Source: Chloroflexota bacterium | GTDB taxonomy: Bacteria > Chloroflexota > Anaerolineae > 4572-78 > J111 | NCBI GenBank assembly: GCA_024277275.1 | Contig: JAJRVO010000336.1 | Coordinates: 1-48,505, forward strand | DNA: 48,505 nucleotides | Reading direction: 5' to 3' | Shown here: one piece after another, positions 1 to 48,080 of the stretch | How positions within the stretch are numbered: the stretch's first letter is position 1 | Layout of the letters: every line of letters begins with the position of its first letter | The notes under the pieces: model-generated | The model's input: the letters and a program-made list of their open reading frames with translations, nothing else | Database searches by the model: none | Told to the model about the DNA's origin: nothing | Translations under genes and position numbers: made by a program

Positions 1-686
1 GGCCAGGAAATGCGAGACTGGCCTTGCGGGTACAATGTGTAGCCGGCAAACACGCCCAATAGAGCAATACCGGACCAGGGCAGCACGGGATAATAATCTA
101 CCATATAGCTGCCAATTTTTTTAACGCCCAACCAGACAAGCGACCAGGACTCGGAGCGAAGGCCATCGACATAAAAGCCGGCCCCAATAATGAAGACACC
201 GGCTGCCAGGCTGGCCCACCTGTTGTAGCCTAAAAAAACGTAAGCCAGAATAATTGAGACGCCCAACAGGTGCAAGATGCCAAAAATTACAAATCCCCGG
301 CCAATAAAAAAGTATGTTGCCAGCGTAATGAGCATCCCCCAACCAAATATTTTGCCGCCCCGGAGTAGATATTTTTTGAACAGCCCGGTTTGTCCGGCCC
401 GTTGACTTTCTCGATGGTAACTAAGCGTCAACGAGATCCCCAGAACAAAAATAAAGAGCGTGGCGATACTTCGGGCAAACCACTGCCAGGGGCCGACCAG
501 CATATTGCCCCGGTACAATCCAAAGTAGTTTAAATCCCAGGTAAAGTGGTAAAAAACCATCAAGACAATGGCAACCCCCCGTAGGGTGTCTACTTCCCAG
601 AGTCTTCTTTGCCTGTTAGTTATTGGCGATGCTTTATCCTCAGTCACAACTTTATCGGGTACTGCCGGGTTATCTTTTTGTATCAT
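1..686 (-). CDS. DUF1624 / heparan-alpha-glucosaminide N-acetyltransferase-like membrane acyltransferase; C-terminus runs off the window
   Basis: My own translation of the minus strand from the ATG at 686-684 stays open to base 1 and is not in the ORF track. It reads MIQKDNPAVPDKV...RRLWEVDTLRGVAIVLMVFYHFTWDLNYFG followed by several hydrophobic helices. The D-x-LRG-x-A-x-x-LM-x-x-x-H N-terminal motif is typical of DUF1624. The start overlaps the upstream kinase stop by 17 nt. Confidence 0.6.
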   Translation of the reverse strand, partial: MIQKDNPAVPDKVVTEDKASPITNRQRRLWEVDTLRGVAIVLMVFYHFTWDLNYFGLYRGNMLVGPWQWFARSIATLFIFVLGISLTLSYHRESQRAGQTGLFKKYLLRGGKIFGWGMLITLATYFFIGRGFVIFGILHLLGVSIILAYVFLGYNRWASLAAGVFIIGAGFYVDGLRSESWSLVWLGVKKIGSYMVDYYPVLPWSGIALLGVFAGYTLYPQGQSRISW

Positions 687-1986
687 TTGGACCTAGCCAC
701 AATTGTCGTTCTTTGTCAAAGCGCCAGCCGGGGGTATCAAGTTTCATTTCTCGACGGGGCCATCCTGCCTCTATGCGGGCCAGGGTCTCTTGCCAGGAGC
801 GAATACCGCCGAGGGCGTCGGGGGCTTCAACATTGCACGCGCCAACGGCGGCGGCAATAGTTACGGCTTCGGTGGGGGATAAGTCGCGCAGCAAAGCGGC
901 CAGAAAACCGGCAATAGCAGAGTCGCCCGCGCCGGTGTTGCCAACTGAGGCGGTTTCAAAAATCGGTACCCAGAATTCTCGGTTGGCCCAGCGAGCTGCA
1001 TCGTCGGGTTTAGCCCGCCCCATACCGGCCAACACAGATTCGCCGGCCGTACCCAGATAAAGCCCTAACTTTCCCGCTTTAAGCAACACCACTTTGGCGC
1101 CCATCGCCAGCAAATCACCGGCAATGTCTGAGAGCAAAGAGTGGGTAATTTGAGTTGCGTCCGCGTTTGTCCGGTCAAAAATATCGGGGTAAAGCATCAA
1201 CAGAATTTCTTCGATGCTGGGCACAAACAGGTCAACATAGGGTAATGTGGCCTTGAGGATGGTTAACCAATTAGCCTGACCAGAGGGAGCGGTTGGGTCA
1301 GGCATAGCCATGTCTAAAGAGGTGGTGACGCCGGTTGCTTTGGCCCGTTTAAACATGTCGACCAGTTCCGCCCCGTCATTCTGGTACAGGCGTTTCATCA
1401 GGGGGGGATAGCCAAAATGGAACAGATCGACATGTTGTAACAAGTTATAATCTACATCGTTGGCGCTAAAGGTGTCGTTGGGGCCGGGACAGTGGAAAAA
1501 GATTCTGTCGGTGTTGGGGAGGCTGAGGATGATGGTGTAAGAACTGGCTTCGCCGGGGACAACGCGCATCCCCTTGGCCAGGTGGTTGGACAGATTTTTG
1601 ACAATATTGAGGATGGCCTGCCCAAAGACATCGTTGCCAATTTTGCCCATCAACCGGGTATTGACGCCCAATTTGTGGAGAGCCTGGCCGGTGTTAGAAA
1701 CCGCTCCCCCGGTAGCCATCACCGCCGGCCCTGCTTCCAACAACCGGCCGGGCTGAAAGGTCGAGGCAAAATCACCCCTTCCCTGTTGGGAAGACCTTCC
1801 CTGTTGGGAAGACCTTCCCTGTTGGGAAGACCTTCCCTGTTGGGAAGACCTTCCCTGTTGGGAAGACCTTCCCTGTTGGGAAGACCTTCCCTGTTGGGAA
1901 GGCGTTCCCAAAAGCGAGGGGATGACATCCAGGCAGATGTGTCCGGCTACTATACATGATTTACTTGGCGGGGTAGACGTAGTCAA
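670..1986 (-). CDS. PfkB-family carbohydrate kinase carrying an internal (SSQQGR)x7 repeat insertion
   Basis: 438 aa ORF. It has the PfkB signature NTGAGDSAIAGFLAAL near the C-terminus and GGAVSNTGQALHKLG near the N-terminus. Confidence 0.8.
   Translation of the reverse strand: MTTSTPPSKSCIVAGHICLDVIPSLLGTPSQQGRSSQQGRSSQQGRSSQQGRSSQQGRSSQQGRSSQQGRGDFASTFQPGRLLEAGPAVMATGGAVSNTGQALHKLGVNTRLMGKIGNDVFGQAILNIVKNLSNHLAKGMRVVPGEASSYTIILSLPNTDRIFFHCPGPNDTFSANDVDYNLLQHVDLFHFGYPPLMKRLYQNDGAELVDMFKRAKATGVTTSLDMAMPDPTAPSGQANWLTILKATLPYVDLFVPSIEEILLMLYPDIFDRTNADATQITHSLLSDIAGDLLAMGAKVVLLKAGKLGLYLGTAGESVLAGMGRAKPDDAARWANREFWVPIFETASVGNTGAGDSAIAGFLAALLRDLSPTEAVTIAAAVGACNVEAPDALGGIRSWQETLARIEAGWPRREMKLDTPGWRFDKERQLWLGPNDTKR
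1777..1902. repeat. Seven tandem copies of the 18-bp unit CCTTCCCTGTTGGGAAGA inside the PfkB kinase CDS
   Basis: Read directly from the sequence. Six copies are perfect and one is slightly divergent. The unit length is a multiple of 3, and the array is translated as the GRSSQQ hexapeptide. Confidence 0.95.
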
Positions 1987-1989
1987 ATT

Positions 1990-3090
1990 TTAAACCTCAA
2001 TCCGATTTGAATACGCAAAAAAGCCGGAGAAACGTTCATCGGCCTGCAATCTTTCCAGGTGCGCTTGAACCAGAGCGCGCACTCTTCTAATATTGTCCGC
2101 ATTTTGGAATACCTCGGTTTTACCCAACAGCGATAGTTTTACTTGTGTAAACGTGGGCGCGTCGCCTTGCATCAGCGCTCTGAAAATCTCGAACGTATTA
2201 AACACCTCTTCTTGCACGGCTGTGGATAGAATATTAGCGGAAACACCGGCTTGCTGTAGAGTTTTGCGCATACATTTTTCGCCGGCGCAGTTCTGGATAT
2301 CTACCTTGTCAAGCTGGTGGTGGATGAAATCAACCGGGTCAAATGGTTCCAAAAATATTTTAATATCCTGGCCGGTTGCCAGGGCGTAGAGCAGCAACAG
2401 ACCTATTTCAGTGGCGGCAGCTTTTGAGGCGGCTTCTGACATGATGGGCAGCAACAACACATCGGCTTCATGCTTAAATTCAGTCTCTATGGATAACAAG
2501 GTGCGCGTACTCATCGCTACGCCCAGGTGGTCAATACTACCGTAAGGGGTTTTCCACGCTTCAGCAAAAGCGCCTTCAGATAAATCCTTTACAGCCTGAC
2601 CGTCTGCCCGGTAGCTTGCGGTTAGCAAATCTTTCTTTTCTTGAAATCTGTCCGTATGCTGCCGGCAATAGGGGCCTCCCGATCCGCCAAGTATTACCCG
2701 CAGCGGATAGTTTTGACCTCGCCTGATTCTTTTTGCCAAAAAATCATCAAAGTTCAAGCCTTTTTGGCCGGCTATCATTTGGTGTTTAGCCGTCTGGCAG
2801 GCTAAAATAGCCAATTCCTGTAAATCATCGCCGCGATGGATTCGCAGGAATCGGTCCAGGTGTGGATTTTTTTCCAGATTTTCCAGGGACATCTCGACCA
2901 TCATATATTGAGCAATGGCCCCCGGTTCATTGAGACTGGTCAGCAAACTGTCTTCTATGGAGACGATGACCACCTGCCCTCTCAAAGCAGCCGAGGTCAA
3001 GGCCATACCGATTTCGGCAATTGAACCCAAACTACCATTCATCAACTCATTGTTTTCCAGACGAATGATGATTACCGAGGCCGTGGCCAT
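1990..3090 (-). CDS. Hypothetical protein (366 aa); weak resemblance to nucleoside 2-deoxyribosyltransferase-like Rossmann modules
   Basis: Long ORF. Segments VIIIRLENNELMNGSLGSIAEIGMA and ADVLLLPIMSEAASKAAATEIGLL resemble the hydrophobic strand plus S/T-x-x-E-x-G pattern of that fold. There is no obvious RBS, and the ATG lies one codon after the stop of the upstream same-frame ORF. Confidence 0.5.
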   Translation of the reverse strand: MATASVIIIRLENNELMNGSLGSIAEIGMALTSAALRGQVVIVSIEDSLLTSLNEPGAIAQYMMVEMSLENLEKNPHLDRFLRIHRGDDLQELAILACQTAKHQMIAGQKGLNFDDFLAKRIRRGQNYPLRVILGGSGGPYCRQHTDRFQEKKDLLTASYRADGQAVKDLSEGAFAEAWKTPYGSIDHLGVAMSTRTLLSIETEFKHEADVLLLPIMSEAASKAAATEIGLLLLYALATGQDIKIFLEPFDPVDFIHHQLDKVDIQNCAGEKCMRKTLQQAGVSANILSTAVQEEVFNTFEIFRALMQGDAPTFTQVKLSLLGKTEVFQNADNIRRVRALVQAHLERLQADERFSGFFAYSNRIEV

Positions 3091-3093
3091 AAT

Positions 3094-3339: not shown

Positions 3340-3361
3340 TGCTGGTTATCTCCTATGAAAC

Positions 3362-3428: not shown

Positions 3429-3430
3429 CT

Positions 3431-3564
3431 GTTGGGTTTCATCAGGTGCGTGTGAAGCTCCGCTTCATAGGCGGCTCCTTTGAAACCCAACTTCGTTCCC
3501 AAATCCAGTTTAGGAACGAAGTTGGGCTTCATCCGGTGTGTGCGAAGCCCCGCTTCATAGGCGG
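3431..3564. repeat. Two copies of a 44-bp direct repeat with nested hairpins
   Basis: GTTGGGTTTCATCAGGTGCGTGTGAAGCTCCGCTTCATAGGCGG (3431-3474) matches GTTGGGCTTCATCCGGTGTGTGCGAAGCCCCGCTTCATAGGCGG (3521-3564). The sequence between them contains TGAAACCCAAC, the reverse complement of the repeat start, and the TTCGTTCC/GGAACGAA stem. Confidence 0.85.
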
Positions 3565-3615
3565 GTATTTAGGGGGTGTTTATATCCTGGAAACCTCTGC
3601 GGCTTTTTGGTGGTT

Positions 3616-4617
3616 TTAGAGCGTAACGGGCTGACCAGACTCAGCGGATTGATAGAGGGCCAAAACGCTTTTCAAAAAATCTCGACTGAGGCTCAGTGGA
3701 ACAACAGGTTCAGCGTCGTCAAAAACACAAGCTTCCATCGCTTCGACTTCGTACAAATAGGGGTCGCTTTGCGGAATCCGGATTGTCTCCTCTGCCCCAT
3801 CTTTAGTAGAGAATATGATTTGGCTGCCTTGACCGGATTGGTGGGGTTTCCAGGGTTCGCTGATTTTGACCAACCCGTCGCTTCCCACAATATGAGCGCC
3901 CTCGCGGAAGGGAGAGCTAAAGCCCGATGAAATTTGAGCCACAACGCCGTTGGCAAACTTCATCTGTCCCTCAAGATAAACCTCAACTCCGGTTTCGCCC
4001 TTAACCTGGCTGGCCCAAACCTCAACCGGCGCCCCGGCTCCGGCCATTACAATAGCCAGGCTGTTGGGGTAAACGCCCACATCCCACAAAGAGCCGCCGG
4101 CCAGATCGGGGGCAAGGCGAATGTTATCTTTGTCTTCCGGGGGTAAATAGTAGGCAAACCAGCTATTAATCATTTGCAACTTGCCCAGTTGGCCGGTCTG
4201 GATCATCTCTTTGACTTTGAGCGTTTGGGGGTGGTGCAGGTACATAAAGGCTTCAAAGACGGTGACGTTGTTGGCTTTGGCTGCCGCTTCAACCCGGTCT
4301 AACTCGGCCATAGTGGGCGTAATGGGCTTCTCGCACAAAACGTGCTTACCGGCTTCGGCAGCCTTAACCGTCCACTCACAGTGGAGGGTGTTGGGCAGGG
4401 GGTTGTAAATTGCGTCTATCTCCGGGTCGGCCAGCAAGTCCTCGTAACTGCCGTGCGCTTTAGGAATACCCTTTTCTTCGGCGTAGGACTTGGCCTTTTC
4501 TATATTTCGACTCGCTACAGCCGCCAACTCGCTCAGCCCGGCCTGGCGGATTGGGTCAAGCAACGCATCATTGATTCCGGCCGTAGACAAAATTCCCCAT
4601 CGGATTTTTTCAGACAT
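3616..4617 (-). CDS. Gfo/Idh/MocA family NAD(P)-dependent oxidoreductase
   Basis: 333 aa. The N-terminus IRWGILSTAGIND is a Rossmann start, and the EKP motif (VLCEKPIT) is present. An AAAGGAGAT RBS precedes the ATG. Confidence 0.85.
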   Translation of the reverse strand: MSEKIRWGILSTAGINDALLDPIRQAGLSELAAVASRNIEKAKSYAEEKGIPKAHGSYEDLLADPEIDAIYNPLPNTLHCEWTVKAAEAGKHVLCEKPITPTMAELDRVEAAAKANNVTVFEAFMYLHHPQTLKVKEMIQTGQLGKLQMINSWFAYYLPPEDKDNIRLAPDLAGGSLWDVGVYPNSLAIVMAGAGAPVEVWASQVKGETGVEVYLEGQMKFANGVVAQISSGFSSPFREGAHIVGSDGLVKISEPWKPHQSGQGSQIIFSTKDGAEETIRIPQSDPYLYEVEAMEACVFDDAEPVVPLSLSRDFLKSVLALYQSAESGQPVTL

Positions 4618-5978: not shown

Positions 5979-6175
5979 TACGTCTCTGTTACTCCACTCT
6001 TTTACTCAACTACTCAGTAAAAATGGGCGAATTAACCAGCTTACCCAAAATCTTAGCATGACTATGGGGGATGAACAATTGCACCAGCGTCAATAAAACC
6101 GAATTCGGCCCGGTACGTAAAAGCTGAAATGCAGTAGGCAGGAGCAGTACTTGCTCCCCCACTCCCTCGTTCAGA

Positions 6176-7099
6176 CTAGCCCTTCAGCGAACCGGCCAGC
6201 AAGCCACGCAAGAAGTAACGTCCCAGGATGATATAAACAAGCAAAGTGGGCAAGGCCGACAGGAAGGCCGCCGCCATTTGAACGTTCCATTGAACCGAAT
6301 AACTACCGGCCACGTTATTGAGGGCCACCGTCATTGGCTGGTTTTCGTTCTGAACAATGGTCACGGCAAAGATAAAGTCGTTCCAGATGTTGGTAAACTG
6401 CCAAATCAATACGACCACAAAAGCCGGTAGGGAGAGGGGGAGCATAACGTAGCGGTAAATGCTAAAGATGTTGCCGCCATCGATACGCGCTGCTTCAAGG
6501 ATTTCGCCGGGGATGGTGGCATAGTAGTTGCGGAAGATAAGTCCTGCAATCGGAATACTATAAATGGTATGGACAAGGATTAAGCCCCAGATATCGCCGT
6601 AAAATCCGATACCCGTCCAAATAGTTAACTTTCTTAAAGTAATGGTCAGGGGGATTAAGACCGATTGATATGGAATAAACATGCCAAAAAGCACAAAGGG
6701 AAAGATAAGGTCGGCGTATTTAAATTTCCACTTAGATAAAATATAGCCGTTTAGCGAGCCGAGTATGGTGGAGATAATTGTGGCCGGAATGGTCATCCTG
6801 ACGCTATTCCAAAAGGCGTCCTTAAAGCCAATAATCATCGATGGGCCGCCATACCAGGCTTCGTAAAAGCTGTCAAAGCAAAAGAAGAAGGGGTTGGTAC
6901 AATCACCCAGGTTCAGAAAGGTCGGAAATTCCCACATGCGGTAGAGATTGATATCAGTATACTGTTTGAAGCTGGTGATGAGAATCATATAAACCGGTAC
7001 AACATAAAAAACAGAAAACAAAATGAGAACAGCGTAGATAAGCGCTCTGGTCCAGCGAAAACGAAAACGAGGTTTTGTAGCTATAGGTGGGGTACTCAT
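6176..7099 (-). CDS. Carbohydrate ABC transporter permease (CUT1, MalG-like)
   Basis: 307 aa polytopic protein. It has an EAA-loop-like segment EAARIDGGNIFSIYRYVMLPL and an ATGA overlap with the upstream permease. Confidence 0.85.
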   Translation of the reverse strand: MSTPPIATKPRFRFRWTRALIYAVLILFSVFYVVPVYMILITSFKQYTDINLYRMWEFPTFLNLGDCTNPFFFCFDSFYEAWYGGPSMIIGFKDAFWNSVRMTIPATIISTILGSLNGYILSKWKFKYADLIFPFVLFGMFIPYQSVLIPLTITLRKLTIWTGIGFYGDIWGLILVHTIYSIPIAGLIFRNYYATIPGEILEAARIDGGNIFSIYRYVMLPLSLPAFVVVLIWQFTNIWNDFIFAVTIVQNENQPMTVALNNVAGSYSVQWNVQMAAAFLSALPTLLVYIILGRYFLRGLLAGSLKG

Positions 7100-8127
7100 T
7101 ATCGTTCCTCCTCTTGTCGCAGGCTTGAAATTAGATAGGGAATGATGAGTAGAGAAATAAGAATCAATAAGACCATACTAATCGCCGCCCCCTGAGCAAA
7201 GCGAGCCGAGGCAAAGGTTGTATCCCACATATTCAGCGCCGGCATATCTTTGACAAAGCCCTGACCTTCGCCCCCCATAGCCACCACCAGGTCGTAGATT
7301 TTCAAAGAGAGGTGGGCCAGGATAATGATTACGCTTAAGGTGATAGGTTTTAGCAAAGGGATAATAATGTGACGATAAATTTGCCATTCATTAGCTCCAT
7401 CCACCCGGGCCGCTTCCCGCAAATCTTCAGGAATACCTCTCATTCCGGCCAGGTAGAGGGCCATAGTATACCCCGATAATTGCCAGGCGGCGGCAATAGT
7501 CAGGGTGATGACCCCCAGGGAAAGGCCAAAGGTGGGCGAAGCAAACCAGCCCAGGCCAATGTTGATCAGCAGTTGGCCCAGACCTGAATCGGCGGGAATA
7601 GAGTAAACCATATCAGTAGACCAGTTGGGATTAAAGAAACTCAGCCCAAAATTTTGAAGGAGCAGGTTAATACCGGTACTGCCGATATTGGAATCGCCGG
7701 GTGTAAAAAGCCACCGCCAGGTCAACCCGGTGACGATGAAAGAGATGGCCATTGGAAATAAAAACACACTTCTAAAGAATCCTTCACCAATAACGTGGCG
7801 GTCCAGAATAGCAGCCAGGGTAAAGCCAATCACAATGCAACTGACGATAAAAAGGATGGTAAAACCAACCACATTTCGCATACCGGTTTTGAAACGTTTG
7901 GCGTCAATGCCGGCCGCATATTTTTCGCCAATGCCAAAGAGTCTAGCATAGCTATCAAAGCCGGAGATGGTATAGTCAGGTTCCGCGCCCCGTTTCCAGT
8001 TTGAAACAGACACCAAACCGCTCCAGCCAATAAAGCCATATACAAAAATAATAATGGCTATTAATGAGGGCAAAAAGAAAGCAAAGCCAACGATCTTTTC
8101 CCAATTTCTGGTCCAATAAACGTTCAT
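7099..8127 (-). CDS. Carbohydrate ABC transporter permease (CUT1, MalF-like)
   Basis: It has the EAA loop EAARVDGANEWQIYRHIIIPL. I place the start at the ATG at 8127 (MNVYWTRNWEK), which is preceded by AGGAGA. The ORF-track extension to 8250 runs through a hairpin repeat. Confidence 0.8.
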   Translation of the reverse strand: MNVYWTRNWEKIVGFAFFLPSLIAIIIFVYGFIGWSGLVSVSNWKRGAEPDYTISGFDSYARLFGIGEKYAAGIDAKRFKTGMRNVVGFTILFIVSCIVIGFTLAAILDRHVIGEGFFRSVFLFPMAISFIVTGLTWRWLFTPGDSNIGSTGINLLLQNFGLSFFNPNWSTDMVYSIPADSGLGQLLINIGLGWFASPTFGLSLGVITLTIAAAWQLSGYTMALYLAGMRGIPEDLREAARVDGANEWQIYRHIIIPLLKPITLSVIIILAHLSLKIYDLVVAMGGEGQGFVKDMPALNMWDTTFASARFAQGAAISMVLLILISLLIIPYLISSLRQEEER

Positions 8128-8186
8128 GGCTCTCCTGTGTTGTATTGAGAGTGAGAGGATTCGGTAATTCAACATAGCCGTAAAAA

Positions 8187-8262
8187 ACGACGAATGACGA
8201 ATGACGATGGACGAACGAAACGCCAGCACAAGATTTTTATCGTTCGTCATTCGTCGTTCGTC
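8187..8262. repeat. Heptamer-periodic palindrome, (GACGAAT)n arm / loop / complementary arm
   Basis: acgacgaatgacgaatgacgatggacgaacga ... tcgttcgtcattcgtcgttcgtc. Confidence 0.9.
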
Positions 8263-8322
8263 CGGTTGACGAAAACGGTCTAAATAATTATCGAGTCATC
8301 TTGTATTTATTTAATCTAGCAT

Positions 8323-8380
8323 AAAACGTAAAACGTGAAACGTGATTGTTTTTGACGTATGGCTCTCACGTTTCACGTTT
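8323..8380. repeat. Heptamer-periodic palindrome, (AAACGTG)n
   Basis: aaaacgtaaaacgtgaaacgtga ... tcacgtttcacgttt. Confidence 0.9.
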
Positions 8381-8403
8381 CATACATTACGCAAAATTAT
8401 AAG

Positions 8404-8431
8404 GCGAGGCGGTTCGCAAGAACCGCCTCGC
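8404..8431 (-). terminator. Stem-loop downstream of the binding-protein gene (possible intra-operon terminator or attenuator)
   Basis: Perfect 12-bp stem GCGAGGCGGTTC / GAACCGCCTCGC with a 4-nt loop. On the minus strand it is followed by CTTATAATTTTG, a weak U tract. Confidence 0.5.
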
Positions 8432-8453
8432 TCAGAAAAGCAACTAAAATTTG

Positions 8454-9992
8454 TTACTGCGGGAAGCCTGCATCCTCAGCGGCCAAAACAAAGGCGGCTT
8501 GAGCGGCGGCTACATCGCGGTCAGAAGAAAACTGATTGACGATCTGGTAGAATTGCTGTTGCCAGGCAGGAATAGCGCCGGAGCCGTGAGCCACCATCGG
8601 GACGATGCGACTGGATGCAAAATCATCCGCAGCGCTCTGGAAGTAAGCGCGGCGATCTTCAGGGAAGACGCCGTAATCGCAGTCGGTGCGAGCGCAGATG
8701 GAGCCTTTATTCATATTAAAGTTTTCCTGGGCGTCTTTGCGGGTCATGATTCTGACAAATTCACGCGCATTTTCCGGGTTGGGGGCATCCTTGGGAATGG
8801 CAAAGCCGTCGGAAACCAGGAAGAACAGGTTCTGATTGCCGGGCGGGGAATTCCAGGTAACGTAATCCAAAGCTCCCTTGGCAATTATCTCACCATAAGC
8901 CCAGTCACCCATGATGTTGAAAGCGGCCTGGTCGTTGATGACCAGGTCGATACCGCCAACCCAGCCGGTGGAGCCGCGGTCTTCATTAGTGCAGTCCAAC
9001 ATCTTGCCGAAGTTTTCTAAGGCTTGGGCTACCACGGGGTCGGTCCAGGAAACGGAGCCGTTCCACAGGCCCTGATTTGTCTCAAAACCGGTGGTGCCGG
9101 CCAGGGCTACTTCAAAGGTGTGACCCAACTCAAAGCCGTCAGTAGTACCCATCCCTAACGGCACCACACCTTGAGCCTGTAGCGTCTCACAGGCAGCAAA
9201 GAACTCGTCAAAGGTTGCGGGCACGGCTACCCCGGCCTTTTCCAAGACCCGGGTGTTGGTCCACATCACGTTGCCGCGGTGGATATTCAGCGGCACGGTG
9301 TAGGTGTTGCCTCTGATTTTCAGCAGCGCTTTCAGGTCCTCGGGCATCACGTCCAACACGCCGGCTTCGGCCAGAATATCGTCGACCGGCCGCAGGTATG
9401 TTTCGGGCGTGTAAAGCTCGGCTTCCAGACCGGCGTGCAGTTGGAAGGTATCATAAGGATCACCCGCGATCAGCTTGGTCAGGTTCGCGCCCTGAAAGTT
9501 CACCCCAGCGCCGCCGGCGATACCGGCGTGGATCAACTCGACATCGGGATTCTCTGCGCGATAAATCTTGTAAACCTCATTCACCCCGGCAAACTCACCA
9601 CCGGAGGTCCACCAGTTACCCACCAGCAACTGGCCTTTGGCCCCACTGGCAAACAGAACACTGACGTCGCCTGCCGTCGGGTCGAAGTCGGCCATAAAGG
9701 CCACTGCCTCGTCATTGGGGGGGATGCTCAGTTTGGCCCCCACCTCGATGGCGTCGGGGTTTTCAATTTTGGCGTATGAGGCGTCCTCGGCGTTGGCCTT
9801 GTTGGTGGCCGCCATGATGGCCCAGTAAGCGTTTGAGTCGCCGTAAAACTTGTCGGCCAGTTTCGACAGCCAGTCATCGGCCTGGACGGTGTAATCCTCG
9901 CCCTGAGCCGCCGGCGCTGCCACAACCATAGATGCCGGCAAAACCATTGCCAGCAGAGCAATTAAAACTGCAATACTTAGAAACCTTTTCAT
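8454..9992 (-). CDS. Extracellular solute-binding protein (family 1, sugar ABC) with an N-terminal LysM domain
   Basis: 512 aa. It has a signal/anchor MKRFLSIAVLIALLAMVL. A LysM-like segment follows: YTVQADDWLSKLADKFYGDSNAYWAIMAATN...IEVGAKLSIP. The remainder is an SBP-like body. An AAGGAGGAG RBS is present. Confidence 0.75.
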   Translation of the reverse strand: MKRFLSIAVLIALLAMVLPASMVVAAPAAQGEDYTVQADDWLSKLADKFYGDSNAYWAIMAATNKANAEDASYAKIENPDAIEVGAKLSIPPNDEAVAFMADFDPTAGDVSVLFASGAKGQLLVGNWWTSGGEFAGVNEVYKIYRAENPDVELIHAGIAGGAGVNFQGANLTKLIAGDPYDTFQLHAGLEAELYTPETYLRPVDDILAEAGVLDVMPEDLKALLKIRGNTYTVPLNIHRGNVMWTNTRVLEKAGVAVPATFDEFFAACETLQAQGVVPLGMGTTDGFELGHTFEVALAGTTGFETNQGLWNGSVSWTDPVVAQALENFGKMLDCTNEDRGSTGWVGGIDLVINDQAAFNIMGDWAYGEIIAKGALDYVTWNSPPGNQNLFFLVSDGFAIPKDAPNPENAREFVRIMTRKDAQENFNMNKGSICARTDCDYGVFPEDRRAYFQSAADDFASSRIVPMVAHGSGAIPAWQQQFYQIVNQFSSDRDVAAAQAAFVLAAEDAGFPQ

Positions 9993-20116: not shown

Positions 20117-20250
20117 TTGCAGGGTAATACTATAGCGCGGCAAGCCGCAAATTAACAATGAGCAATTAACAATGAACAAATGATTCTCGCGGATAACGCA
20201 AATGTTGCGAGGTAATACTATACCGGGAATGGGCGACGGTGTCAACCAAA

Positions 20251-21246: not shown

Positions 21247-21412
21247 TGATCAGTAATCGGTGATCAGTAATCGGTAGTCAGTAATCAGTAATCGGTAGTC
21301 AGTAATCAGTAATCGGTAGTCAGTAATCAGTAATCGGTAGTCAGTAATCAGTAATCGGTAGTCAGTAATCAGTAATTGTAGTCAACTGATCACTGGTCAC
21401 TGGTTACTGATT
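21247..21412. repeat. Tandem 14/21-bp units built from AGTAATC-type heptamers, with a complementary right arm
   Basis: (tgatcagtaatcgg)x2 and (tagtcagtaatcagtaatcgg)x4-5 are followed by caactgatcactggtcactggttactgattgcc. The stop codon and last codons of the upstream reductase gene lie within the right arm. Confidence 0.95.
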
Positions 21413-22378
21413 GCCGGTGTTTTGTGATTTTGTTTTTACATCTTCGCGCCAATAATCAAGGACGCGCCGCAGGCTGTCTTCAAACTTATAGATGGGTTTC
21501 CAGCCTGTTTGTTCGCGTAATTTGCTGTTGTTTGCGTAGATAATCGGTACATCAGAAGGGCGCATACGTTCCGGGTCCGGCTTAATACTAATCTTGATAT
21601 CGGTATAGCTGAGCAATACCTCCAACAAATATTCAATGGAGTAGGCTTTGCCTGTGCCTACGTTGTAAGCTTCGCCCGGCGCGCCATGCTCAACCAGTAA
21701 CGCATAGGCTCGCATAACGTCGATGACATCGGTGAAGTCTCGCTGCGCTTCCAGATTGCCCACCCAAATTACAGGCTCGCTCAACCCGGCTTCAATCTCG
21801 GCGATTTGTTTGGCAAAAGAGGCCGCGACAAAAAATGGGCTTTGGCGCGGCCCAATATGGTTAAAAGCCCGGATGCGTAATACATCAAGGCCATGGCTTA
21901 AATGATATTGCAAGGCCAAAACGTCTTGGGTGGCCTTGCTCACCCCATAGGGGTTATGGGGGCGGAGCGGAGTGTCTTCTTTTACCGGAAGGCGGTCTTT
22001 TTGCACAAGGCCGTAAACCTCGTTAGAGGCCACAATTAACAGGCGCGTCTTAGATTTTTGCCTGACCATAGTCTGCAAAATATTAAGTTGCGGCCGAATA
22101 TTGTTTTCCATTGTTGCCCACGGATCAACCCAGGCCGTAGGCACAAACGCCTGTCCGGCCAGGTGATAAATGGCATCGGGTTGACACTGGTTTAACACTT
22201 GATCAACTACGTCTGCGTCACACAGATTAGCAATAACCGGCGTTATCATTTGGCTTAAGTGGTCTAAACCATATCCCTTATCATGGGCCACTCCAAATAC
22301 TTCATCATCGCGATCTAATAAAATTTGAGCCAGGTGTCCTCCCGCAAAACCAGTGATGCCTGTAATTAATGCCCGCAC
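21404..22378 (-). CDS. rmd: NAD-dependent epimerase/dehydratase, probable GDP-4-keto-6-deoxy-D-mannose reductase
   Basis: 324 aa with a GTG start. It has [21 protein letters not shown] (Rossmann) and a YGVSK catalytic YxxxK, and it lies immediately upstream of gmd in the same orientation. Confidence 0.65.
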   Translation of the reverse strand: MRALITGITGFAGGHLAQILLDRDDEVFGVAHDKGYGLDHLSQMITPVIANLCDADVVDQVLNQCQPDAIYHLAGQAFVPTAWVDPWATMENNIRPQLNILQTMVRQKSKTRLLIVASNEVYGLVQKDRLPVKEDTPLRPHNPYGVSKATQDVLALQYHLSHGLDVLRIRAFNHIGPRQSPFFVAASFAKQIAEIEAGLSEPVIWVGNLEAQRDFTDVIDVMRAYALLVEHGAPGEAYNVGTGKAYSIEYLLEVLLSYTDIKISIKPDPERMRPSDVPIIYANNSKLREQTGWKPIYKFEDSLRRVLDYWREDVKTKSQNTGNQ

Positions 22379-24186: not shown

Positions 24187-24663
24187 ATGTCAAGTAATAC
24201 CATGATTAGCCTTAGACCAGAAAACGTCATTCGTCAACTGCCGTGGCGATTAGATAGTAAGGCTGCCCTGGGATTTTTATTGCTTTTGGCGACTTTTAGC
24301 CTGGTTGGCTGGTTGTATCTTAGCCAGGCCAGCGCTGTCACAACTACCAGTTATCGTATTGACGAACTACGGGTGGAACTTGATCAGCTTAAAAATCAAA
24401 ACGCTTCCCTGTCCCTGGAAATTGCCGAACTGGAAGCTCTCTCTCGAGTTGAAGCCCGCGCTCGCGACATTGGGTTTGAACCCACAACAGGTTTTGAGTA
24501 TCTACCCGTTACCCATTACCCAATGCCATTAGAGTCAGAAGCCACTTTGTACGGCGCTACACACATAGAAAGCAGCATAGACGCCTATGCCGTTGAGGTT
24601 GAAAGCCCGGGGTGGTGGGTCGAAAAACTGGACGCCTTTGCCGCCTGGCTTGAGAGTGAGTAG
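24187..24663 (+). CDS. ftsL: Cell division protein FtsL-like (single TM helix plus coiled coil)
   Basis: 158 aa in the position between rsmH and ftsI. It has the TM helix ALGFLLLLATFSLVGWLYL, then a heptad-rich region ending LSRVEARARDIGF. Confidence 0.65.
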   Translation: MSSNTMISLRPENVIRQLPWRLDSKAALGFLLLLATFSLVGWLYLSQASAVTTTSYRIDELRVELDQLKNQNASLSLEIAELEALSRVEARARDIGFEPTTGFEYLPVTHYPMPLESEATLYGATHIESSIDAYAVEVESPGWWVEKLDAFAAWLESE

Positions 24664-24668
24664 CAAAA

Positions 24669-24816
24669 AGTAATCAGTAATCAGTAATCAGTAATCAGTA
24701 ATCAGTAATCAGTAATCAGTAATCAGTAATCAGTGACCAGTTTTTACTCGTTACTAATTACCAATTACCAATTACCAATTACCAATTACCAATTACTGAT
24801 TACTAATAACCGATAA
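24669..24816. repeat. Heptamer-periodic palindrome: (AGTAATC)x9 / loop / (ATTACCA)x5 and variants
   Basis: Direct reading. It fills the whole ftsL-ftsI spacer. Confidence 0.95.
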
Positions 24817-24825
24817 CCGAGACCG

Positions 24826-26676: not shown

Positions 26677-26735
26677 AAACCATTTGTTAATTACTAATTG
26701 TTCATTGTTAATTGAAAAATCTGGTGATTTGATAC

Positions 26736-35475: not shown

Positions 35476-35569
35476 GGTAATTAGTAAATGGTAAATAGTA
35501 ATTAGCCCAAATTACTTAAGTGAAGCGGCTTACTAATTACCAATTACTATTTACTAATTACCAATTACC
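35476..35569. repeat. Heptamer-periodic palindrome (TAGTAAT/ATTACTA type)
   Basis: ggtaattagtaaatggtaaatagtaattag ... ttactaattaccaattactatttactaattaccaattacc. Confidence 0.9.
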
Positions 35570-35640
35570 GACATACAGAACCTTTGTTAGAAAATAGCTG
35601 AACAGTTACCAAATATGCTTGATGATTTACCGGGAAAGTT

Positions 35641-37102: not shown

Positions 37103-37137
37103 ACCGGCTGGCTGTGTTTACAGGCATAAACGATGCC

Positions 37138-37191
37138 GGTAATTAGTAAATAGTAATTGGTTAAATTACTATTTACTAATTACCTAATTAC
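37138..37191. repeat. Heptamer-periodic palindrome (TAGTAAT type)
   Basis: ggtaattagtaaatagtaattgg ttaa attactatttactaattacctaattac. Confidence 0.9.
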
Positions 37192-37211
37192 AAAGAGTTT
37201 AGGAGCAACCA

Positions 37212-39526: not shown

Positions 39527-39700
39527 TCAGTAATTAGTAATTAGTAAATAGTAAATAGTAGTCGGTAGCTGGTGGTTAGTAGCTGGTGGCTGGCGGTTAG
39601 TAGCTGGTAGCTGGTAGCTGGTGGTTAGTAGCAGGTGGTTGGTAGTGGCGAGTAGCGTCTGCTAACGACCAACAGCTATCAGCTACCAGCTGCCAGCTAA
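39527..39700. repeat. About 25 consecutive heptamer units (TAGTAAT drifting to TGGTAGC) with a complementary right arm
   Basis: cagtaat tagtaat tagtaaa tagtaaa tagtagt cggtagc tggtggt tagtagc ... accaaca gctatca gctacca gctgcca gcta. It begins directly after the ddl stop. Confidence 0.95.
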
Positions 39701-41128: not shown

Positions 41129-42352
41129 GTGGATCGCACTGTTGTTGCCTTAGACATAGGCACTACAAAAATCTGCACGCTAGTTGCCGAAGTCGGCCCT
41201 CCCCCGGAAGAGAGCTTGCGTGTTGTAGGTGTGGGTACTGTGCCTTCAAGGGGAATCCGTAAAGGGGTGGTGGTAAATGTCAACGAAGTTGCAGCCGCCA
41301 TTGTCGACTCGGTTCGCCTGGCGGAGCGTACCTCTGGATATGAAATTGCCAGCGCCTATGTTGGGTTAGCCGGAGCGCACATTAACGCCGTAAATAGCCG
41401 GGGCGTGGTAGCCATTAGCCGAGGCGAACGGGGTATCCGAACTGTAGATGTTGAAAGGGCTTTGGAATCTGCACGGGCCATCGATATTCCCCACAATCGG
41501 GAGATTCTGCATATTATCCCGCGCGGCTTTACCGTAGATGGCGACGACGGGGTACGCGACCCGGTTGGGATGCAAGGCTACCGGCTGGAGGTTGAAGCCC
41601 ATATTGTTACCGGAGCTACTTCGTCCATTAAAAACCTTATCAGGTGCGTGCAGAGTTGTGGGGTTCAAATTGACGCTTTGGTTTTGGAACCGTTGGCCTC
41701 TGGCGAAGCGGTTTTAACCGACATTTAGCGCGAGATGGGGGTAGTACTGGTTGATATCGGCGGCGGCACTACAGACATCGCCATATTTATAGAAGGCGCC
41801 ATTTGGCACGCCGTTGTTTTACCCACCGGCGGCGAACAATTGACCAACGATGTGGCCGTAGGCTTACGCACCCCCTACAACACGGCAGAAGATATTAAGA
41901 TTAAATACGGGCACGCCCTGCCCCAGGCCGTAATGCTTGAAGAGATTGTTAAGGCCGAAGTGTTTGGCGAAGAAGGTCAACAGCAAATCCCTCGCCAGTT
42001 TTTGGCAGAAATTGTGGGAGCGCGCGCCGAAGAGATTTTTGAGCTGGTCTTAAAAGAGATTAAGCGGAGCGGGTACGATGGACTTTTGCCGGCAGGCATT
42101 GTTTTGTGCGGAGGCACCGCCGAATTACCCGGTATCCGCGATTTGGCCCGCGATGTTATGGGGCTACCGGCCCGTATCGGCGAGCCGCAAAATTTGCGCG
42201 GGTTGGTCGACACGCTACACAGCCCGGCTTTTGCTACCACCGTGGGGTTATTAGAATGGGGCGTAATGCACGACTTGCCCAAACCGGTTCAGCAATCCGC
42301 AAACCACAGTTTGAAGGTGCCGACTTGGTTAAAAGCGTTTTTGCCGGGGTAA
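41129..42352 (+). pseudogene. ftsA: Cell division protein FtsA, interrupted by an in-frame TAG at 41726-41728
   Basis: A GTG start is preceded by GGGGAGGAGG. It reads VALDIGTTKICTLVAE...LEPLASGEAVLTDI, then TAG, then in the same frame REMGVVLVDIGGGTTDIAIF...VLCGGTAELPGI. Together these make one actin-fold FtsA of about 407 codons. Confidence 0.9.
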
Positions 42353-42446
42353 TTGCCGGTAATCAGTAACCGGTAATTAGTAATCAGTAATTAGTGAATA
42401 GTTGACTACAATTACCAATTACTAATTACTAATTACTGGTTACTAG
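42348..42446. repeat. Heptamer-periodic palindrome (CAGTAAT/ATTACTA type) starting at the ftsA stop codon
   Basis: ggtaattgccggtaatcagtaaccggtaattagtaatcagtaattagtgaatag ... attaccaattactaattactaattactggttactag. Confidence 0.9.
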
Positions 42447-42565
42447 TACACGGCGGCGTAAATCCTTCGGTAGTTTATGGAGTGAAAAAGTGCACTTTTT
42501 CACTCCATAAACTAAGCAACGCGCTGCTTGTAACTACCGAAAGACTTCCGCCAAGTTGTACTAGT
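42442..42565. repeat. 124-bp imperfect palindrome upstream of ftsZ with a perfect 38-bp core
   Basis: The core TTTATGGAGTGAAAAAGTGCACTTTTTCACTCCATAAA (42474-42511) is self-complementary. The outer arms are ACTAGTACA...CCTTCGGTAG and CTACCGAAAG...TGTACTAGT. Confidence 0.9.
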
Positions 42566-44061: not shown

Positions 44062-45941
44062 TTAATTGGAAGGAGCAATAACATCTGAAGCGGTGACTGA
44101 AGTTGGCACCGATTCTACGGCGGGCGTGGCAACCCCAGCCGGTTCAAACTCAACTTCGCGGATGGTCAGGGTATCGTAGTTAACGTGGGCCATAGATTCG
44201 TCAAACGTTTCGGTAAAAAAGCCAACCTCGCCGCCGGCGTAATCAGCATCGCTTACCTGGATGACCGGCTGCCCATTGATGTGGAAGATAAAATCAGAGC
44301 CGTTGGTATCCACGCGGAGGGTGTCTGCGTTGTTCTCGCTAAGAGCGTGTTTCTTAAAGACCGCAGAGGTTTTCTGCGAGACATTTTTAAGCGAATTTGC
44401 CCCGGTTATGAACCTGACTTACAGTTAAAATCGGCTTCGGAAACCTCTGCGGTCTGGTCTACACGATTTAAGAAACACGCTCTAAGACCCTGGATAGAGT
44501 CGTCAGCGCCCTCTGCCAGAACTTCTAACCCGGCGGCGGAACTTTTAAGCGCGTACCAGTTTTTGCTTCGGGGCGAGACGGTGAAGGCGTAAAATTGCTC
44601 GCCTGTGCGGCGAACAACCAGGCCATAGCGGAAGTCGCCGATATCGGTGCCGGTTTTGGCTACAAAAATATTGCTTTCAACGGTAACGTTGTCAAAACCC
44701 GGACCTCGGGAAATTAACCCTCTCTCGCCGGGGGCGTGAACTTCAACGTGGTAAAAATCGGGAGGATGGTAGCCAAAAAGGCCGCTTTCTGCTTCCAGCT
44801 CCGGCCAACCGCTGGTGGGGTTGGTGAAGTTGTCCTCAAACAACACCGTTTCAGTCTCGACAACCGTAACCTCATCTGCCGCGCAGCGAACGCCGGATGT
44901 AGCAGACATTGTAGGCACGCTTGGATCGCCCTGAAGGCGGTAGGCCATATCCTGGACAAAACCGTGCGTGCCGCCGCGCAAAACCCGATTGCCCTCTTCA
45001 ACCGGAGCATAGGGGTCTCCCACCCACTCCCAAACGTTGCCGGCCATATCAAAAACGCCAAAGGGGCTGCGGTTGGCAACGATGCTGCCCACGGCATATG
45101 TGCCGGCCCGGGGGAGTTCAACATCGCGCTCGGTATCTCCCCAGGGGTATGCCAGGCCATGACGACCTCGGGCCGCAGCCTCCCATTCGGCTTCGGTGGG
45201 CAGGCGTTTTCCAGCCCATTGGCAATAAGCGGTAGCTATGTCCCAGGTAATGCCCTCAACCGGGTGGTTTTCTTTTTCGGCCGGAATTGTTCCTGTGGAC
45301 CAGCTTACAGGCGGCTCACGGTCGCCTTCAGCCAAAAATTCCGCATATTGAGCGTTGGTCGCCTCGTATTGATCAATCCAAAACTCGGTCAGTTCAATTT
45401 GCTGTGTTGGGGCGTACTCTGTGCCGGTTACATCCGAGCCGATAATATACGAGTCGGCATGGATTTTAACCATCTGTTTAGACAAGGGCAGGTTAACTGA
45501 GGCCAGGGCTTGCTCTCCCGGCAACGATGGAGATTGCACAAACCGAGAAACCGCATACACGGCCCCCAGGCCAATTAAAAATATAAAAATGGCAACCCCA
45601 ATTCCAACCGACCACAGGAGCGTGTTATTTTTCTTGACAGGTTGGACCGCTTGCATCACGGCAGAGGTGGGTTCAGGCGTTGACGCAATTGGCGTTGACC
45701 TTATCCCTGATGGGCCGGTATCTTGCCGGCTATTTACTCGCGTTTTCTTTTTAGGCGACGGAATAGTCATTTCTTGGAGACTTCGCTTGGCGTCTCTCAA
45801 CCCCGTGGCCATATAGGCAGCAGTTTGGTAACGGTCGGCTGGAGATTTTGCCAGCGCTTTTTGAATGACTTCAACTAATTTATCGGGGGCGTCGCTTTCC
45901 AGGTTTTTTATAGCGACACAGTTTGCAAAGCCCCATAAATG
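44062..45941 (-). pseudogene. Decayed Ser/Thr kinase / FGE-sulfatase (SUMF1-like) gene: 5-prime truncated and disrupted near the 3-prime end by a 138-bp MITE
   Basis: The frame upstream of the ATG at 45812 encodes AIKNLESDAPDKLVEVIQKALAKSPADRYQTAAYMATGL, the C-terminal lobe of a protein kinase domain only, bounded by TGA at 45944-42. A TM helix follows, then the FGE domain (FWIDQYEATNAQY, HPVEGITWD, RLPTEAEWE, NVWEWV, RVLRGG). The C-terminal beta-rich domain is split between ORFs 44406..45812 and 44062..44313, which lie in different frames. Confidence 0.75.
44344..44481. mobile_element. 138-bp MITE with roughly 35-bp imperfect terminal inverted repeats and a 5-bp target-site duplication (CTAAG)
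   Basis: CTAAG occurs at 44339-43 and at 44482-86. The left end AGCGTGTTTCTTAAAGACCGCAGAGGTTT pairs with the right end AAACCTCTGCGGTCT(ggtctacacga)TTTAAGAAACACGCT. Removing the element plus one CTAAG joins ...DDSIQGL to SENNADTLRVDTNGSDFIFHINGQ... in frame. Confidence 0.75.
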
Positions 45942-46109
45942 TCAAGCGTCTTTGTCCAAAAAAGTGTCCTTAAAGACCCGGCAGGTCTTTCAATCCCAAA
46001 AATTATTAGCTTCTGATAGAATCAATATAAATTTTTTATAAAAACCCCTATAAAAATTATAACAAAAATACAAAAAACAACAAATCCTTAACAATAGAAT
46101 TTATGGGGC
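45930..46109. repeat. AT-rich segment bounded by an 11-bp inverted repeat (GCCCCATAAAT / ATTTATGGGGC), at the kinase truncation point
   Basis: The inverted repeat lies at 45930-40 and 46099-109. The interior is strongly AT-rich and contains GTGTCCTTAAAGACCCGGCAGGTCTTT (45964-90), which resembles the MITE terminus GTGTTTCTTAAAGACCGCAGAGG. Confidence 0.6.
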
Positions 46110-46285
46110 GTTGTTTTTTAGCATAGTGAGGTGGTTTGTGGGGCGGTGCAAGTATTGACGCAGGGAGCTACCACTTTGGTCGAGGCGTTTGCCGGCGGGG
46201 TTGGAGCCAGCTTGGCGGGGGGCGGATAGCTTTAGATTTTAGGCGTTTATTATGCACACATCGACAGTTTTTTATCGATAATTTT

Positions 46286-46378
46286 GAATAGTGAATTGGG
46301 AATAATGAATTGTGAACGGCTTGGTAGCAGTAAATTTTCATTAACAATTCACAATTGGCAATTCACAATTGGCAATTG
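46286..46378. repeat. Periodic palindrome (GAATTGTGA/TCACAATT type)
   Basis: gaatagtgaattgggaataatgaattgtgaa ... ttcattaacaattcacaattggcaattcacaattggcaattg. Confidence 0.9.
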
Positions 46379-46439
46379 ATCCAGCCATTGTCCACCGATA
46401 ATTGTGAATCCCCATTGATCATGATAAAATTCACCTCTT

Positions 46440-48080
46440 ATGCTGGGAGCTTACTTTTCTCCATTGGCGCCGGCGGCTGTTTTGCTGTTGAGCGTCTTCA
46501 TTTTGCCTGTTGTTATTTTGCCTGCCCATCGGGGGATACGTAATTTTGGCGCTTCGGGGTTGGTGGGAGTAGCTTTTTTGAGCCTGCTGGGTATTCGCCT
46601 CACCCCCGGCAGCGACGCTATGGGCGCGGGACTGGAACTACTCTCCGGCTGGAACTTTTCCACGGCCGAGTCCGCCGCGGCGCTAACAGTCAGGGCCGAC
46701 ACGTTGAGCCTGCCCTTTCTCATTGTAACCTTGCTGGTTCTCCTGGCCGTGACGCTACTTCGCTCCGATGCTGCCGCAGCCGAGAACGGTCATTGGACTC
46801 AAGTATCCGGCTGGCTGTTGATGGGGGCGGGCGCTTGCCTGCTGTTTGTCTCGGCTAATGGCTTGACCCAACTTTATGCGGTTATGGTTTTTGATACCTT
46901 TGCCGCGTTTTATTGGCTGGGACGAGGCCACCGTAATTTGGGCGTCGCTCGGTTGTTTTTGGGGATATTCACTGCCGCCGGGTTGATATTGGCTACGTTA
47001 ACCCCAACAATTGGAGCTGTACCCGGCCTGCTGTTGTTGGGCCTGGCTCTGTGGTTGCGATTGGGACTGTACCCCTTTATGGAAGCCACAGCCCACGCCC
47101 CCTGGCGCAGCGACGAGCGTTTGGCCTATCTAAGCCTGTCTCTGACCGTGGGAATGTATCTGGTTATCAGAGTGGTCAGCGAGCCTCTGCCGGAGATTAT
47201 CCGCTGGCTGACCGTCGTCGCCATGCTGTTGGGCGGTTTATTGACCTGGTTGACCGGGTCGTCTCTTCCCCTTGCCGGAGATGCAGGCAAGCCGGTGGGA
47301 GAAAGACGCGCTTCATTGCTGGCCTGGTTGGTTTTTACCGAAGCCCTGCTCATCTTGGCGGCACGGCCATTGGCTACCGGTACGGCCATCGCTTTTGCTG
47401 TTGGCCTCATCTTGAGTCTGGTTGCTCTGTGGGTTACGCCAGCCCTGGGACGGCCTCGTCTTAGCGAGGGGGCCTGGTCATGGCCCTATCTGCCCGCCGT
47501 TGTCGCCACCCTAACCTTGATTGGCGCGCCCCTTTTGCTGGGCTTGCCGGCCCGAGTCGCCATTTACCAATCGCTGTTTCGTATAGACAAATTAACTATT
47601 GTTTTGATTGTCATCCTGGCTGAAGGGTTAGCTTTGAGCGGGTTGATTCGCTACTGGCTAATTTTGGGACAAGGCAATGAAGCCGGCGGTCGTCGCTCTG
47701 TGGTAGGGATTGTGGCGATGGTTCCATTTTTGACGCCCGGCTTGGCTCCCTTTATTTTATCGGCCATAACTGAAATTGAGTTGTCTTTGGGCGGAGTGGA
47801 GTGGTCATTTGGCTTATTGGGTATTAACATTGCCATTGTGTTAGGGGCTGTTGGCTTAGGTTATTTTAGGGGCCAAATCATCGACCGGCTAGAAATTCCG
47901 GCTGAAACTATGGTTAGACTCATCCGCTTGAATTGGCTGCTCCGCTGGGGGGAGTCGCGCCTTAACCAAATTAGTAAGGTAGCGCTCCGGGTTCGGGTGA
48001 CTCTGGAAGGACAGCATTATTTGGGTTGGGCAGTTTTTACAGCGTTAGTAGGAGCCTTAATTATTCTTTTAAGAACGTAG
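46440..48080 (+). CDS. Polytopic membrane protein of unknown function (546 aa)
   Basis: A long ORF with at least 12 hydrophobic helices. The N-terminal region (RADTLSLPFLIVTLLVLLAV) shows only a vague resemblance to NuoL/N/MrpD-type antiporter-like subunits. Confidence 0.5.
   Translation: MLGAYFSPLAPAAVLLLSVFILPVVILPAHRGIRNFGASGLVGVAFLSLLGIRLTPGSDAMGAGLELLSGWNFSTAESAAALTVRADTLSLPFLIVTLLVLLAVTLLRSDAAAAENGHWTQVSGWLLMGAGACLLFVSANGLTQLYAVMVFDTFAAFYWLGRGHRNLGVARLFLGIFTAAGLILATLTPTIGAVPGLLLLGLALWLRLGLYPFMEATAHAPWRSDERLAYLSLSLTVGMYLVIRVVSEPLPEIIRWLTVVAMLLGGLLTWLTGSSLPLAGDAGKPVGERRASLLAWLVFTEALLILAARPLATGTAIAFAVGLILSLVALWVTPALGRPRLSEGAWSWPYLPAVVATLTLIGAPLLLGLPARVAIYQSLFRIDKLTIVLIVILAEGLALSGLIRYWLILGQGNEAGGRRSVVGIVAMVPFLTPGLAPFILSAITEIELSLGGVEWSFGLLGINIAIVLGAVGLGYFRGQIIDRLEIPAETMVRLIRLNWLLRWGESRLNQISKVALRVRVTLEGQHYLGWAVFTALVGALIILLRT

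Follow-up and report, generated by a model that had tools for sequence, protein, structure and literature searches.

On a 48.5-kb contig from an uncultured Anaerolineae (Chloroflexota) genome, analysed here at its full length of 48,505 bp and called the window, two minus-strand ORFs with different reading frames, 44406..45812 (468 aa) and 44062..44313 (83 aa), abut a short non-coding element. Are these two genes, or one gene that has been split, and if so, what split it and by which route? A preliminary description of this DNA had proposed a 138-bp MITE, recently transposed, within a gene. Elsewhere the window contains a dcw cell-division cluster (mraW to ftsZ) together with transport, sugar-nucleotide and signalling genes.

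Results

Structure of the element

The non-coding element extends over 44343..44482 on the plus strand (140 bp) if its ends are taken as G...C with a 3-bp duplication, or over 44344-44481 (138 bp) if the duplication is 5 bp. On the same strand, its left terminal inverted repeat (TIR, 44343..44372) is composed of an outer block, GAGCGTGTTTCTTAAA, followed directly by an inner block, GACCGCAGAGGTTT. The right TIR (44441..44482) is composed of the inner block AAACCTCTGCGGTC, an 11-nt bulge, GGTCTACACGA, at 44456-44466, and the outer block TTTAAGAAACACGCTC; the bulge is confined to this arm, and each arm comprises two perfect 15-nt inverted-repeat blocks. Employing a repeat search of the window, we found that the outer arms 44339-44358 and 44467-44486 (20 nt, flanks counted in) are 95% complementary and the inner arms 44358-44372 and 44441-44455 (15 nt) are 100% complementary. 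The same search returned CTAAG direct repeats spaced 143 bp. The left copy is located at 44339..44343 (core TAA at 44340-44342) and the right copy at 44482..44486 (core TAA at 44483-44485); the plus strand reads gttctcg CTAAG AGCGTGTTTCTTAAAGACCGCAGAGGTTT ... AAACCTCTGCGGTCT ggtctacacga TTTAAGAAACACGCT CTAAG accctgg.

As single-stranded DNA, the element formed a hairpin of -38.1 kcal/mol (z = -8.5). The mean of 200 shuffled sequences was -14.6 +/- 2.8 kcal/mol, and 0/200 were as stable as the element. Repeat search and folding agreed with the previously described 138-bp element with long imperfect TIRs, an 11-nt bulge and flanking CTAAG copies.

The 29-nt left arm occurred once in the window at <=3 mismatches, with 0 occurrences expected by chance, and the matches that a word-7 BLAST with the element produced elsewhere in the window were all at chance level, leaving one copy in 48.5 kb. 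Two candidates for related TIRs were rejected: a 14-nt match at 3589-3602, which was within the window background, and a CTTAAAGACC-containing hairpin at ~45963-45992, close to the host-gene 5' breakpoint, considered as a related solo TIR (local alignment score 22; background segments of the window reach 30).

The frame of the host gene meets a stop inside the element, and one stop-free frame of 46 aa crosses it. Among 5.8 billion and 1.84 billion proteins searched, none was a real homologue of the 46-aa peptide, and a word-indexed search produced zero candidates. A full HMMER scan brought up three repetitive proteins, which were dismissed as chance-like; the two that were inspected were unlike the element. 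Rfam models gave no match anywhere in the window at the gathering score, nor did 44250-44580 match any of them when E was relaxed to <= 1.

One gene interrupted by the element

Element plus one repeat amounts to 143 bp, and 143 mod 3 = 2, which accounts for the frame change between the two ORFs. In silico removal of 44344-44486 (143 bp) generated a continuous ORF, ...AEGADDSIQGLSENNADTLRVDTNGSDFIFHINGQPV..., in which the joined frame reads ...LAEGADDSIQGLSENNADTLRVDTNGSDFIFHINGQPVIQVSDADYAGGEVGFF...; both the frame change and the restoration of the ORF, as put forward in the preliminary description, were reproduced in this way. In the codon alignment the restored site is GGT CTT AGC and includes the CTTAG target, and the predicted empty-site sequence is ...GTTCTCGCTAAGACCCTGG.... 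Neither half of the ORF carries an additional stop or frameshift.

The upstream part of the host gene (44487..45911, minus strand), delimited by a PF03781 match and by homologue alignment, holds a remnant of a kinase C-lobe, a TM segment, an FGE-sulfatase domain and the first ~2/3 of a concanavalin-A (ConA)-like beta-sandwich. ORF 44406..45812 then enters the element, where 44406..44481 (minus strand) encodes a 25-aa tail, RACFLNRVDQTAEVSEADFNCKSGS, and a premature stop codon (44406-44408). The 3' part (44062..44338, minus strand) is stranded in another frame and holds the C-terminal tail together with the final five beta-strands of the ConA-like domain.

The restored protein has an FGE-sulfatase domain (PF03781, 1.1e-38) and 4,658 relatives in the database. 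The best of these are 57-58% identical, ~990 aa long and from Anaerolineae/Chloroflexota metagenomes; these best relatives consist of a Ser/Thr kinase, a TM segment, an FGE-sulfatase domain and one or two C-terminal domains of ~185 aa. Homology extends across the junction. Seven full-length homologues align there without a gap, with invariant G468 and G475 before and D482, L484, R485 and V486 after it, and codon alignments with two homologues are also uninterrupted. The best database homologue is 57-71% identical, and the databases contained no relative near enough to show an empty site of the window copy at the DNA level. Compared to P0093, the 185-aa domain aligned over 185/185 columns with no gaps (65% identity, E = 3e-94).

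Searches of Pfam, NCBIfam and PDB sequences left the C-terminal domain unnamed; fold comparison alone supplied a name. An AlphaFold model of P0093, based on a 16-sequence alignment, showed a mean pLDDT of 84, with block means of 84-94 across the complete domain. The modelled domain is all-beta, in keeping with the beta-rich C-terminal domain noted earlier, and among PDB folds it comes closest to CBM66 and galectin-like sandwiches (TM-score, measured on the target, up to 0.78; E about 4e-9). According to this model of a homologue, the split domain is an all-beta ConA-like sandwich. The insertion point maps to a loop between strands E226-234 and E246-254 of the P0093 model, so the truncated product would lose five strands and gain 25 element-encoded residues. 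With its last five strands removed, the ConA-like domain is predicted to be unable to fold.

The preliminary description had the element disrupting a gene. The frame is indeed broken, but the gene was not intact beforehand. Homology to full-length relatives starts at their residue 244, corresponding to window position 45911, and the host gene is without the ~243-aa N-terminal kinase domain of its closest full-length homologues. What is left of the kinase C-lobe is 33 aa (45813-45911) upstream of the first ATG (45812), with a stop codon just before the remnant. No other piece of the kinase domain of the host gene was found anywhere in the contig, and none of the closest full-length homologues (L014, L015 and L028) adjoins ftsZ. 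The host gene had already lost its N-terminal kinase domain before the insertion. ORFs 44406..45812 and 44062..44313 are one interrupted, 5'-truncated gene and should be annotated as a pseudogene, not as two genes.

Other copies in Anaerolineae

Scanning metagenomes with a 24-base two-block pattern, we identified two further copies, L007 and L008. A three-copy nhmmer profile, which matched the element with E = 1e-46, was then run on 226 kb of Anaerolineae loci and detected a fourth, diverged copy. A pattern applied to a genome collection, GTGTTTCTTAAAN{0,12}GACCGCAG, was too loose: its matches, at least six, were due to chance and came from unrelated taxa. Plasmid and phage records and viral contigs contained no match to the element.

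The L007 copy (PJEL010000738.1, 9210-9349, minus strand) is 84% identical to the window copy, flanked by CTTAG/CTTAA and located ~100 bp beyond the 3' end of a threonine synthase gene. The best matches of this threonine synthase are Anaerolineae/Anaerolineales MAGs, so the host of L007 belongs to the same class as the window organism, whose class was judged by the source names of the homologues of the window gene. The L008 copy (Ga0224496_10120701, 148-285, minus strand; 78% identity; CTTAG/CTTAG) lies a few bases past the stop of a 198-aa ORF. The fourth locus was recovered from two JGI samples of one species (L017, 4387-4524; L018, 1696-1833) and is 57% identical to the window copy; it lies between a 23S_rRNA_IVP gene and argF and is flanked by TTAG on the right, with no clean copy on the left. 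The three loci outside the window are all intergenic.

All of these copies align end to end with the window element. The left arm is identical at 27/27 positions across the window, L007 and L008, the bulge is found in every member of the family, and all four loci have conserved ends, kept as GAGCGTGTGTCTTAAAG ... CTAAGTAGCACATTC in L017/L018. At the right end, the outermost 3 nt are CTA in L007 and ATT in L008 versus GCT in the window, and a perfect outer TIR is seen in the window copy alone.

The L017 copy sits in the loop of a repeat palindrome. Another species (L019, L020) has the palindrome in its syntenic spacer but lacks the element there, which provides an empty site in a relative for this copy. 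The element is one of a family represented at four or more Anaerolineae loci. This family, which was not seen in the libraries searched, does not seem to have been described previously. The four loci are in four different Anaerolineae genomes, with one copy in the available 48.5 kb of this genome; a total of four loci, one per genome, may mean a low-copy family. The MITE reading of the preliminary description gains from the additional copies, from homology across the junction and from one spacer with and without the element.

Target site and length of the duplication

The flanks are CTAAG/CTAAG in the window, CTTAG/CTTAG in L008 and CTTAG/CTTAA in L007. Because the central base varies between loci and agrees within each locus, the duplicated target DNA comprises TWA as a minimum. 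Being constant, the outer C and G could be either target (5-bp duplication, 138-bp element) or ends of the element (3-bp duplication, 140-bp element). The duplication flanking the element is therefore real, as had been claimed, but its length may be 3 bp rather than 5 bp.

Read as 3-bp TWA, the duplications are TAA/TAA, TTA/TTA and TTA/TTA in the window, L007 and L008, with zero mismatches; this reading also lengthens the TIR by one G:C pair and gives the ends GAG...CTC. Read as 5 bp, they are perfect in two of the three loci and need one mutation in L007, so the discrimination hangs on one discordant base. A duplication of TA only, of the Correia/NEMIS type, does not match the flanks: the ends would be asymmetric, and the variable W is duplicated too. 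On these flanks, a 3-bp TWA duplication probably fits at least as well as a 5-bp CTWAG duplication.

Divergence of the hairpin among copies

In a comparison of the four copies, the hairpin was most stable in the window (-36.2 kcal/mol, z -7.9), followed by L007 (-29.3 kcal/mol, z -6.4), L008 (-21.9 kcal/mol, z -3.9) and L017 (-8.5 kcal/mol, z +1.4). Among the three close copies (window, L007 and L008), the arms are near-invariant and the centre is variable, and three inner-stem pairs show double changes. A conserved functional hairpin was considered because of these three double changes and rejected, since the structure is gone in L017. The drop of hairpin stability with divergence fits decaying transposase-binding ends, not a structure that the host maintains.

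That the window insertion is relatively recent is suggested by its perfect duplication, by TIRs that are the best preserved in the family and by the freedom of both ORF halves from other lesions. The recency of the transposition claimed earlier is to be taken as relative.

Discussion

A real, ordinary bacterial MITE insertion, an instance of a well-known phenomenon, is well supported at this locus. We consider it very likely that a MITE, that is, a non-coding insertion mobilised by a transposase, entered a C-TWA-G site and split the minus-strand gene, with an IS5/IS1031-like element as its candidate partner. Sequence comparisons are the basis on which we infer how the element transposed, which family its partner belongs to and how recent the insertion is. 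The element would be an internally deleted derivative of a DDE-type insertion sequence, and a transposase supplied in trans would recognise its TIRs. It would have inserted into the palindromic C-TWA-G, here ggtCTTAGcgag, at codons for Gly-Leu-Ser, and staggered cleavage followed by repair would have duplicated the target, most likely the 3-bp TAA or, alternatively, the 5-bp CTAAG. The gain of 143 bp would then shift the frame, add the 25-aa tail and the stop codon, and deprive the product of the last five strands of the beta-sandwich.

Insertion sequences of the IS1031 group insert at TNA, generate exclusively a 3-bp repeat and have inverted repeats such as GAACCTGTCTAGTATCT of ISLrh (PMC12016507). 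The inverted repeats of the IS5 family typically start with GAG, as in GAGACCTTTGCAAAA of ISNme1, and MITEs share only TIRs with their parent IS (PMC4596501). Under the 3-bp reading the end of our element is GAGCGTGTTTC, which may be compared with GAACCTGTCTAG (PMC12016507) and GAGACCTTTGCA (PMC4596501). GAG ends and a TNA-type 3-bp duplication favour a partner of the IS5 family resembling the IS1031 group, and an IS5/IS1031-like origin of the ends is a lead to that candidate partner. An autonomous element with the same ends was not found, nor was any transposase, in the 48.5-kb window or the 226 kb of related loci; the ends GAGCGTGTTTCTTAAA in combination with the TWA target provide a specific probe for the autonomous IS.

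The likeness to the IS1031 group bears directly on the choice of duplication length. If the element is instead 138 bp long with AG...CT ends and a true 5-bp CTWAG duplication, it would be mobilised by an IS making 4-5-bp duplications, with IS1380, ISH3 or IS3-like elements as candidate movers rather than IS5/IS1031-type ones. The repeats of the window (CTAAG) and L008 (CTTAG) are perfect under this alternative, and the outer C and G occur at 5/6 flank positions in the three loci. Nevertheless we regard it as rather unlikely: L007 has CTTAG/CTTAA, whereas the 3-bp model is perfect in all three loci and adds the terminal G:C pair, and GAG ends with a TNA duplication agree with the IS1031 group. 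By ISfinder conventions, AG...CT ends are not known to be typical of families with 5-bp duplications.

Two other explanations were weighed. The window is a 48.5-kb contig of an uncultured lineage, and ftsA on the same contig has an in-frame TAG, so the consensus may contain errors or minority alleles; the insertion might then be a population variant or a metagenome mis-join, with the gene intact in most cells. This is improbable: a complete element lies here between perfect repeats and a conserved ORF returns on its removal, which a chimera would not produce, and independent contigs have this element with flanks of the same type; moreover, even a polymorphic insertion would be a real transposition event. 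Less plausible still, and in our judgement hardly tenable, is a palindromic repeat kept for a host function (an RNA hairpin, a terminator or a REP/ERIC-type protein-binding site), which would spread by recombination, not transposition, and lie in the ORF incidentally. The very stable hairpin, the double changes at three inner-stem base pairs in three copies, and the position of the L007 and L008 copies just downstream of genes speak for such a function, but L017, the most diverged copy, no longer forms the hairpin (z = +1.4) and Rfam gives no match even at E = 1. Orientation to neighbouring genes is also inconstant, being opposite in the window, the flanking duplications differ by locus, and insertion within a coding frame is destructive.

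With transposition as the preferred reading, the locus documents an apparently recent event in an uncultured Anaerolineae genome and defines the ends and the target of a MITE family. The copies are 78-84% identical in genomes that are 3-5 points of G+C apart. Somewhat doubtful at present, but worth stating, is a broader proposal: that this is an undescribed, Anaerolineae-specific MITE family that is still active here, has spread between genera and targets CTWAG. The proposed targets may include CTWAG sites inside the heptamer-repeat palindromes that fill Anaerolineae intergenic spacers. If this proposal held, the family would be usable as a marker of recent genome change and possibly as a handle for genetics in a phylum almost without genetic tools.

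Comparison with known systems

Correia elements (NEMIS, in Neisseria) and the similar hairpin MITEs of enterobacteria and streptococci, ERIC and RUP, are 100-160 bp long, have long TIRs that fold into a hairpin, and can lie in or beside genes and affect expression. Correia elements duplicate TA, whereas the duplicated core here is TWA; ERIC elements have no defined duplication; and none of the three has sequence similarity to our element.

Tourist-like MITEs prefer an extended palindromic target around TTA/TAA. Those of PIF/Harbinger, such as mPing, have a 3-bp TWA duplication, as does our element in its 3-bp reading, but they are eukaryotic, need two proteins and have no sequence in common with it. 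The resemblance is one of mechanism and does not make the element a member of this group. PIF/Harbinger elements generate 3-bp duplications, and their transposase superfamily is related to the bacterial IS5 family (PMC12730594); precise excision of mPing restoring a gene is documented (PMC4561436).

MITEs derived from IS5-family elements, such as ATR of Neisseria (from ISNme1) and BrickBuilt and MITE239 of Porphyromonas, are likewise small, non-coding and mostly intergenic. Our element differs from them in that no parent IS or transposase was found, in its Anaerolineae (Chloroflexota) host and in the unusual length of its arms (~30 and 42 nt), whose 11-nt bulge is fixed. Under the 3-bp reading, it would resemble the IS1031 group in the TNA target and the exclusive 3-bp duplication, and also in the inverted repeats, which start with GA(G/A)C.TGT in that group, as in GAACCTGTCTAGTATCT of ISLrh (PMC12016507), and read GAGCGTGTTTCTTAAAG here.

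The C-terminal domain of the host-gene protein family

Proteins of the kinase/FGE-sulfatase family to which the gene split by the MITE belongs end in a C-terminal domain of about 185 amino acids, which is present in one or two copies per protein among the homologues examined. This domain corresponds to window positions 44062-44840 in the restored gene and to residues 121-305 of the homologue P0093. Sequence searches of Pfam, NCBIfam and PDB returned no match to it. Based on the AlphaFold model of P0093, the domain is predicted to form a ConA-like/CBM66-like beta-sandwich, which makes this still unnamed domain a probable carbohydrate-binding one.

At its 5' end, the host gene lacks the N-terminal kinase domain (window 45812-46440 region). 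The match to full-length relatives begins at 45911, past which lie about 530 bp of non-coding, AT-rich DNA with a hairpin, AAAGACCCGGCAGGTCTTT, at about 45971-45990 and with heptamer-like repeats.

Setting of the MITE copy in L007

In the Anaerolineae contig L007, about 5.1 kb (4290-9453) separates the threonine synthase gene from the next PALP gene; within it are the MITE copy, an ORF of 79 aa and three others that are larger. Six related loci were compared: in five (L009, L016, L017, L019 and L020) the corresponding gap is 5-66 bp, and in the sixth (L013) another gene lies between the two. The insert here is variable, and the MITE copy lies at its edge.

Interruption of ftsA

An in-frame TAG at 41726-41728 divides the window's ftsA into two ORFs, 41129..41728 and 41735..42352, which share one frame and each match FtsA Pfam models. 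The TAG may reflect an error in sequencing or consensus, a minority allele, or a genuine nonsense codon, here in a gene that is essential.

Repeats in the window and in other Anaerolineae

About eight tandem copies of an 18-nt unit, CCTTCCCTGTTGGGAAGA, are found at 1759-1927, in the 5' part of ORF 670..1986 (PfkB-family kinase); four are identical among the 61-nt copies listed for this array. A 44-nt repeat, GTTGGGTTTCATCAGGTGCGTGTGAAGCTCCGCTTCATAGGCGG, occurs twice (3431-3474 and 3521-3564; 89% identity, spacing 90 bp) within the 525-bp stretch 3091-3615, flanked by ORFs 1990..3090 and 3616..4617.

In the dcw cluster, tandem heptamer repeats fill many of the spacers between genes; (GTAATCA)n, for example, stands opposite (TTACCAA)n, and such arrays form long palindromes. 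Heptamer-repeat spacers are located at 21253-21421, 24663-24820, 35477-35575, 37136-37193, 39527-39691, 42345-42457, 46338-46375, 3362-3399, 20150-20185, 26678-26713 and 8312-8399. Other Anaerolineae have comparable short tandem-repeat palindromes, GGCTAAG.../...CTTAGCC, in their spacers (L017, 4325-4560; L019, 7800-7860). The heptamers in the window resemble the STRR heptamer repeats of cyanobacteria.
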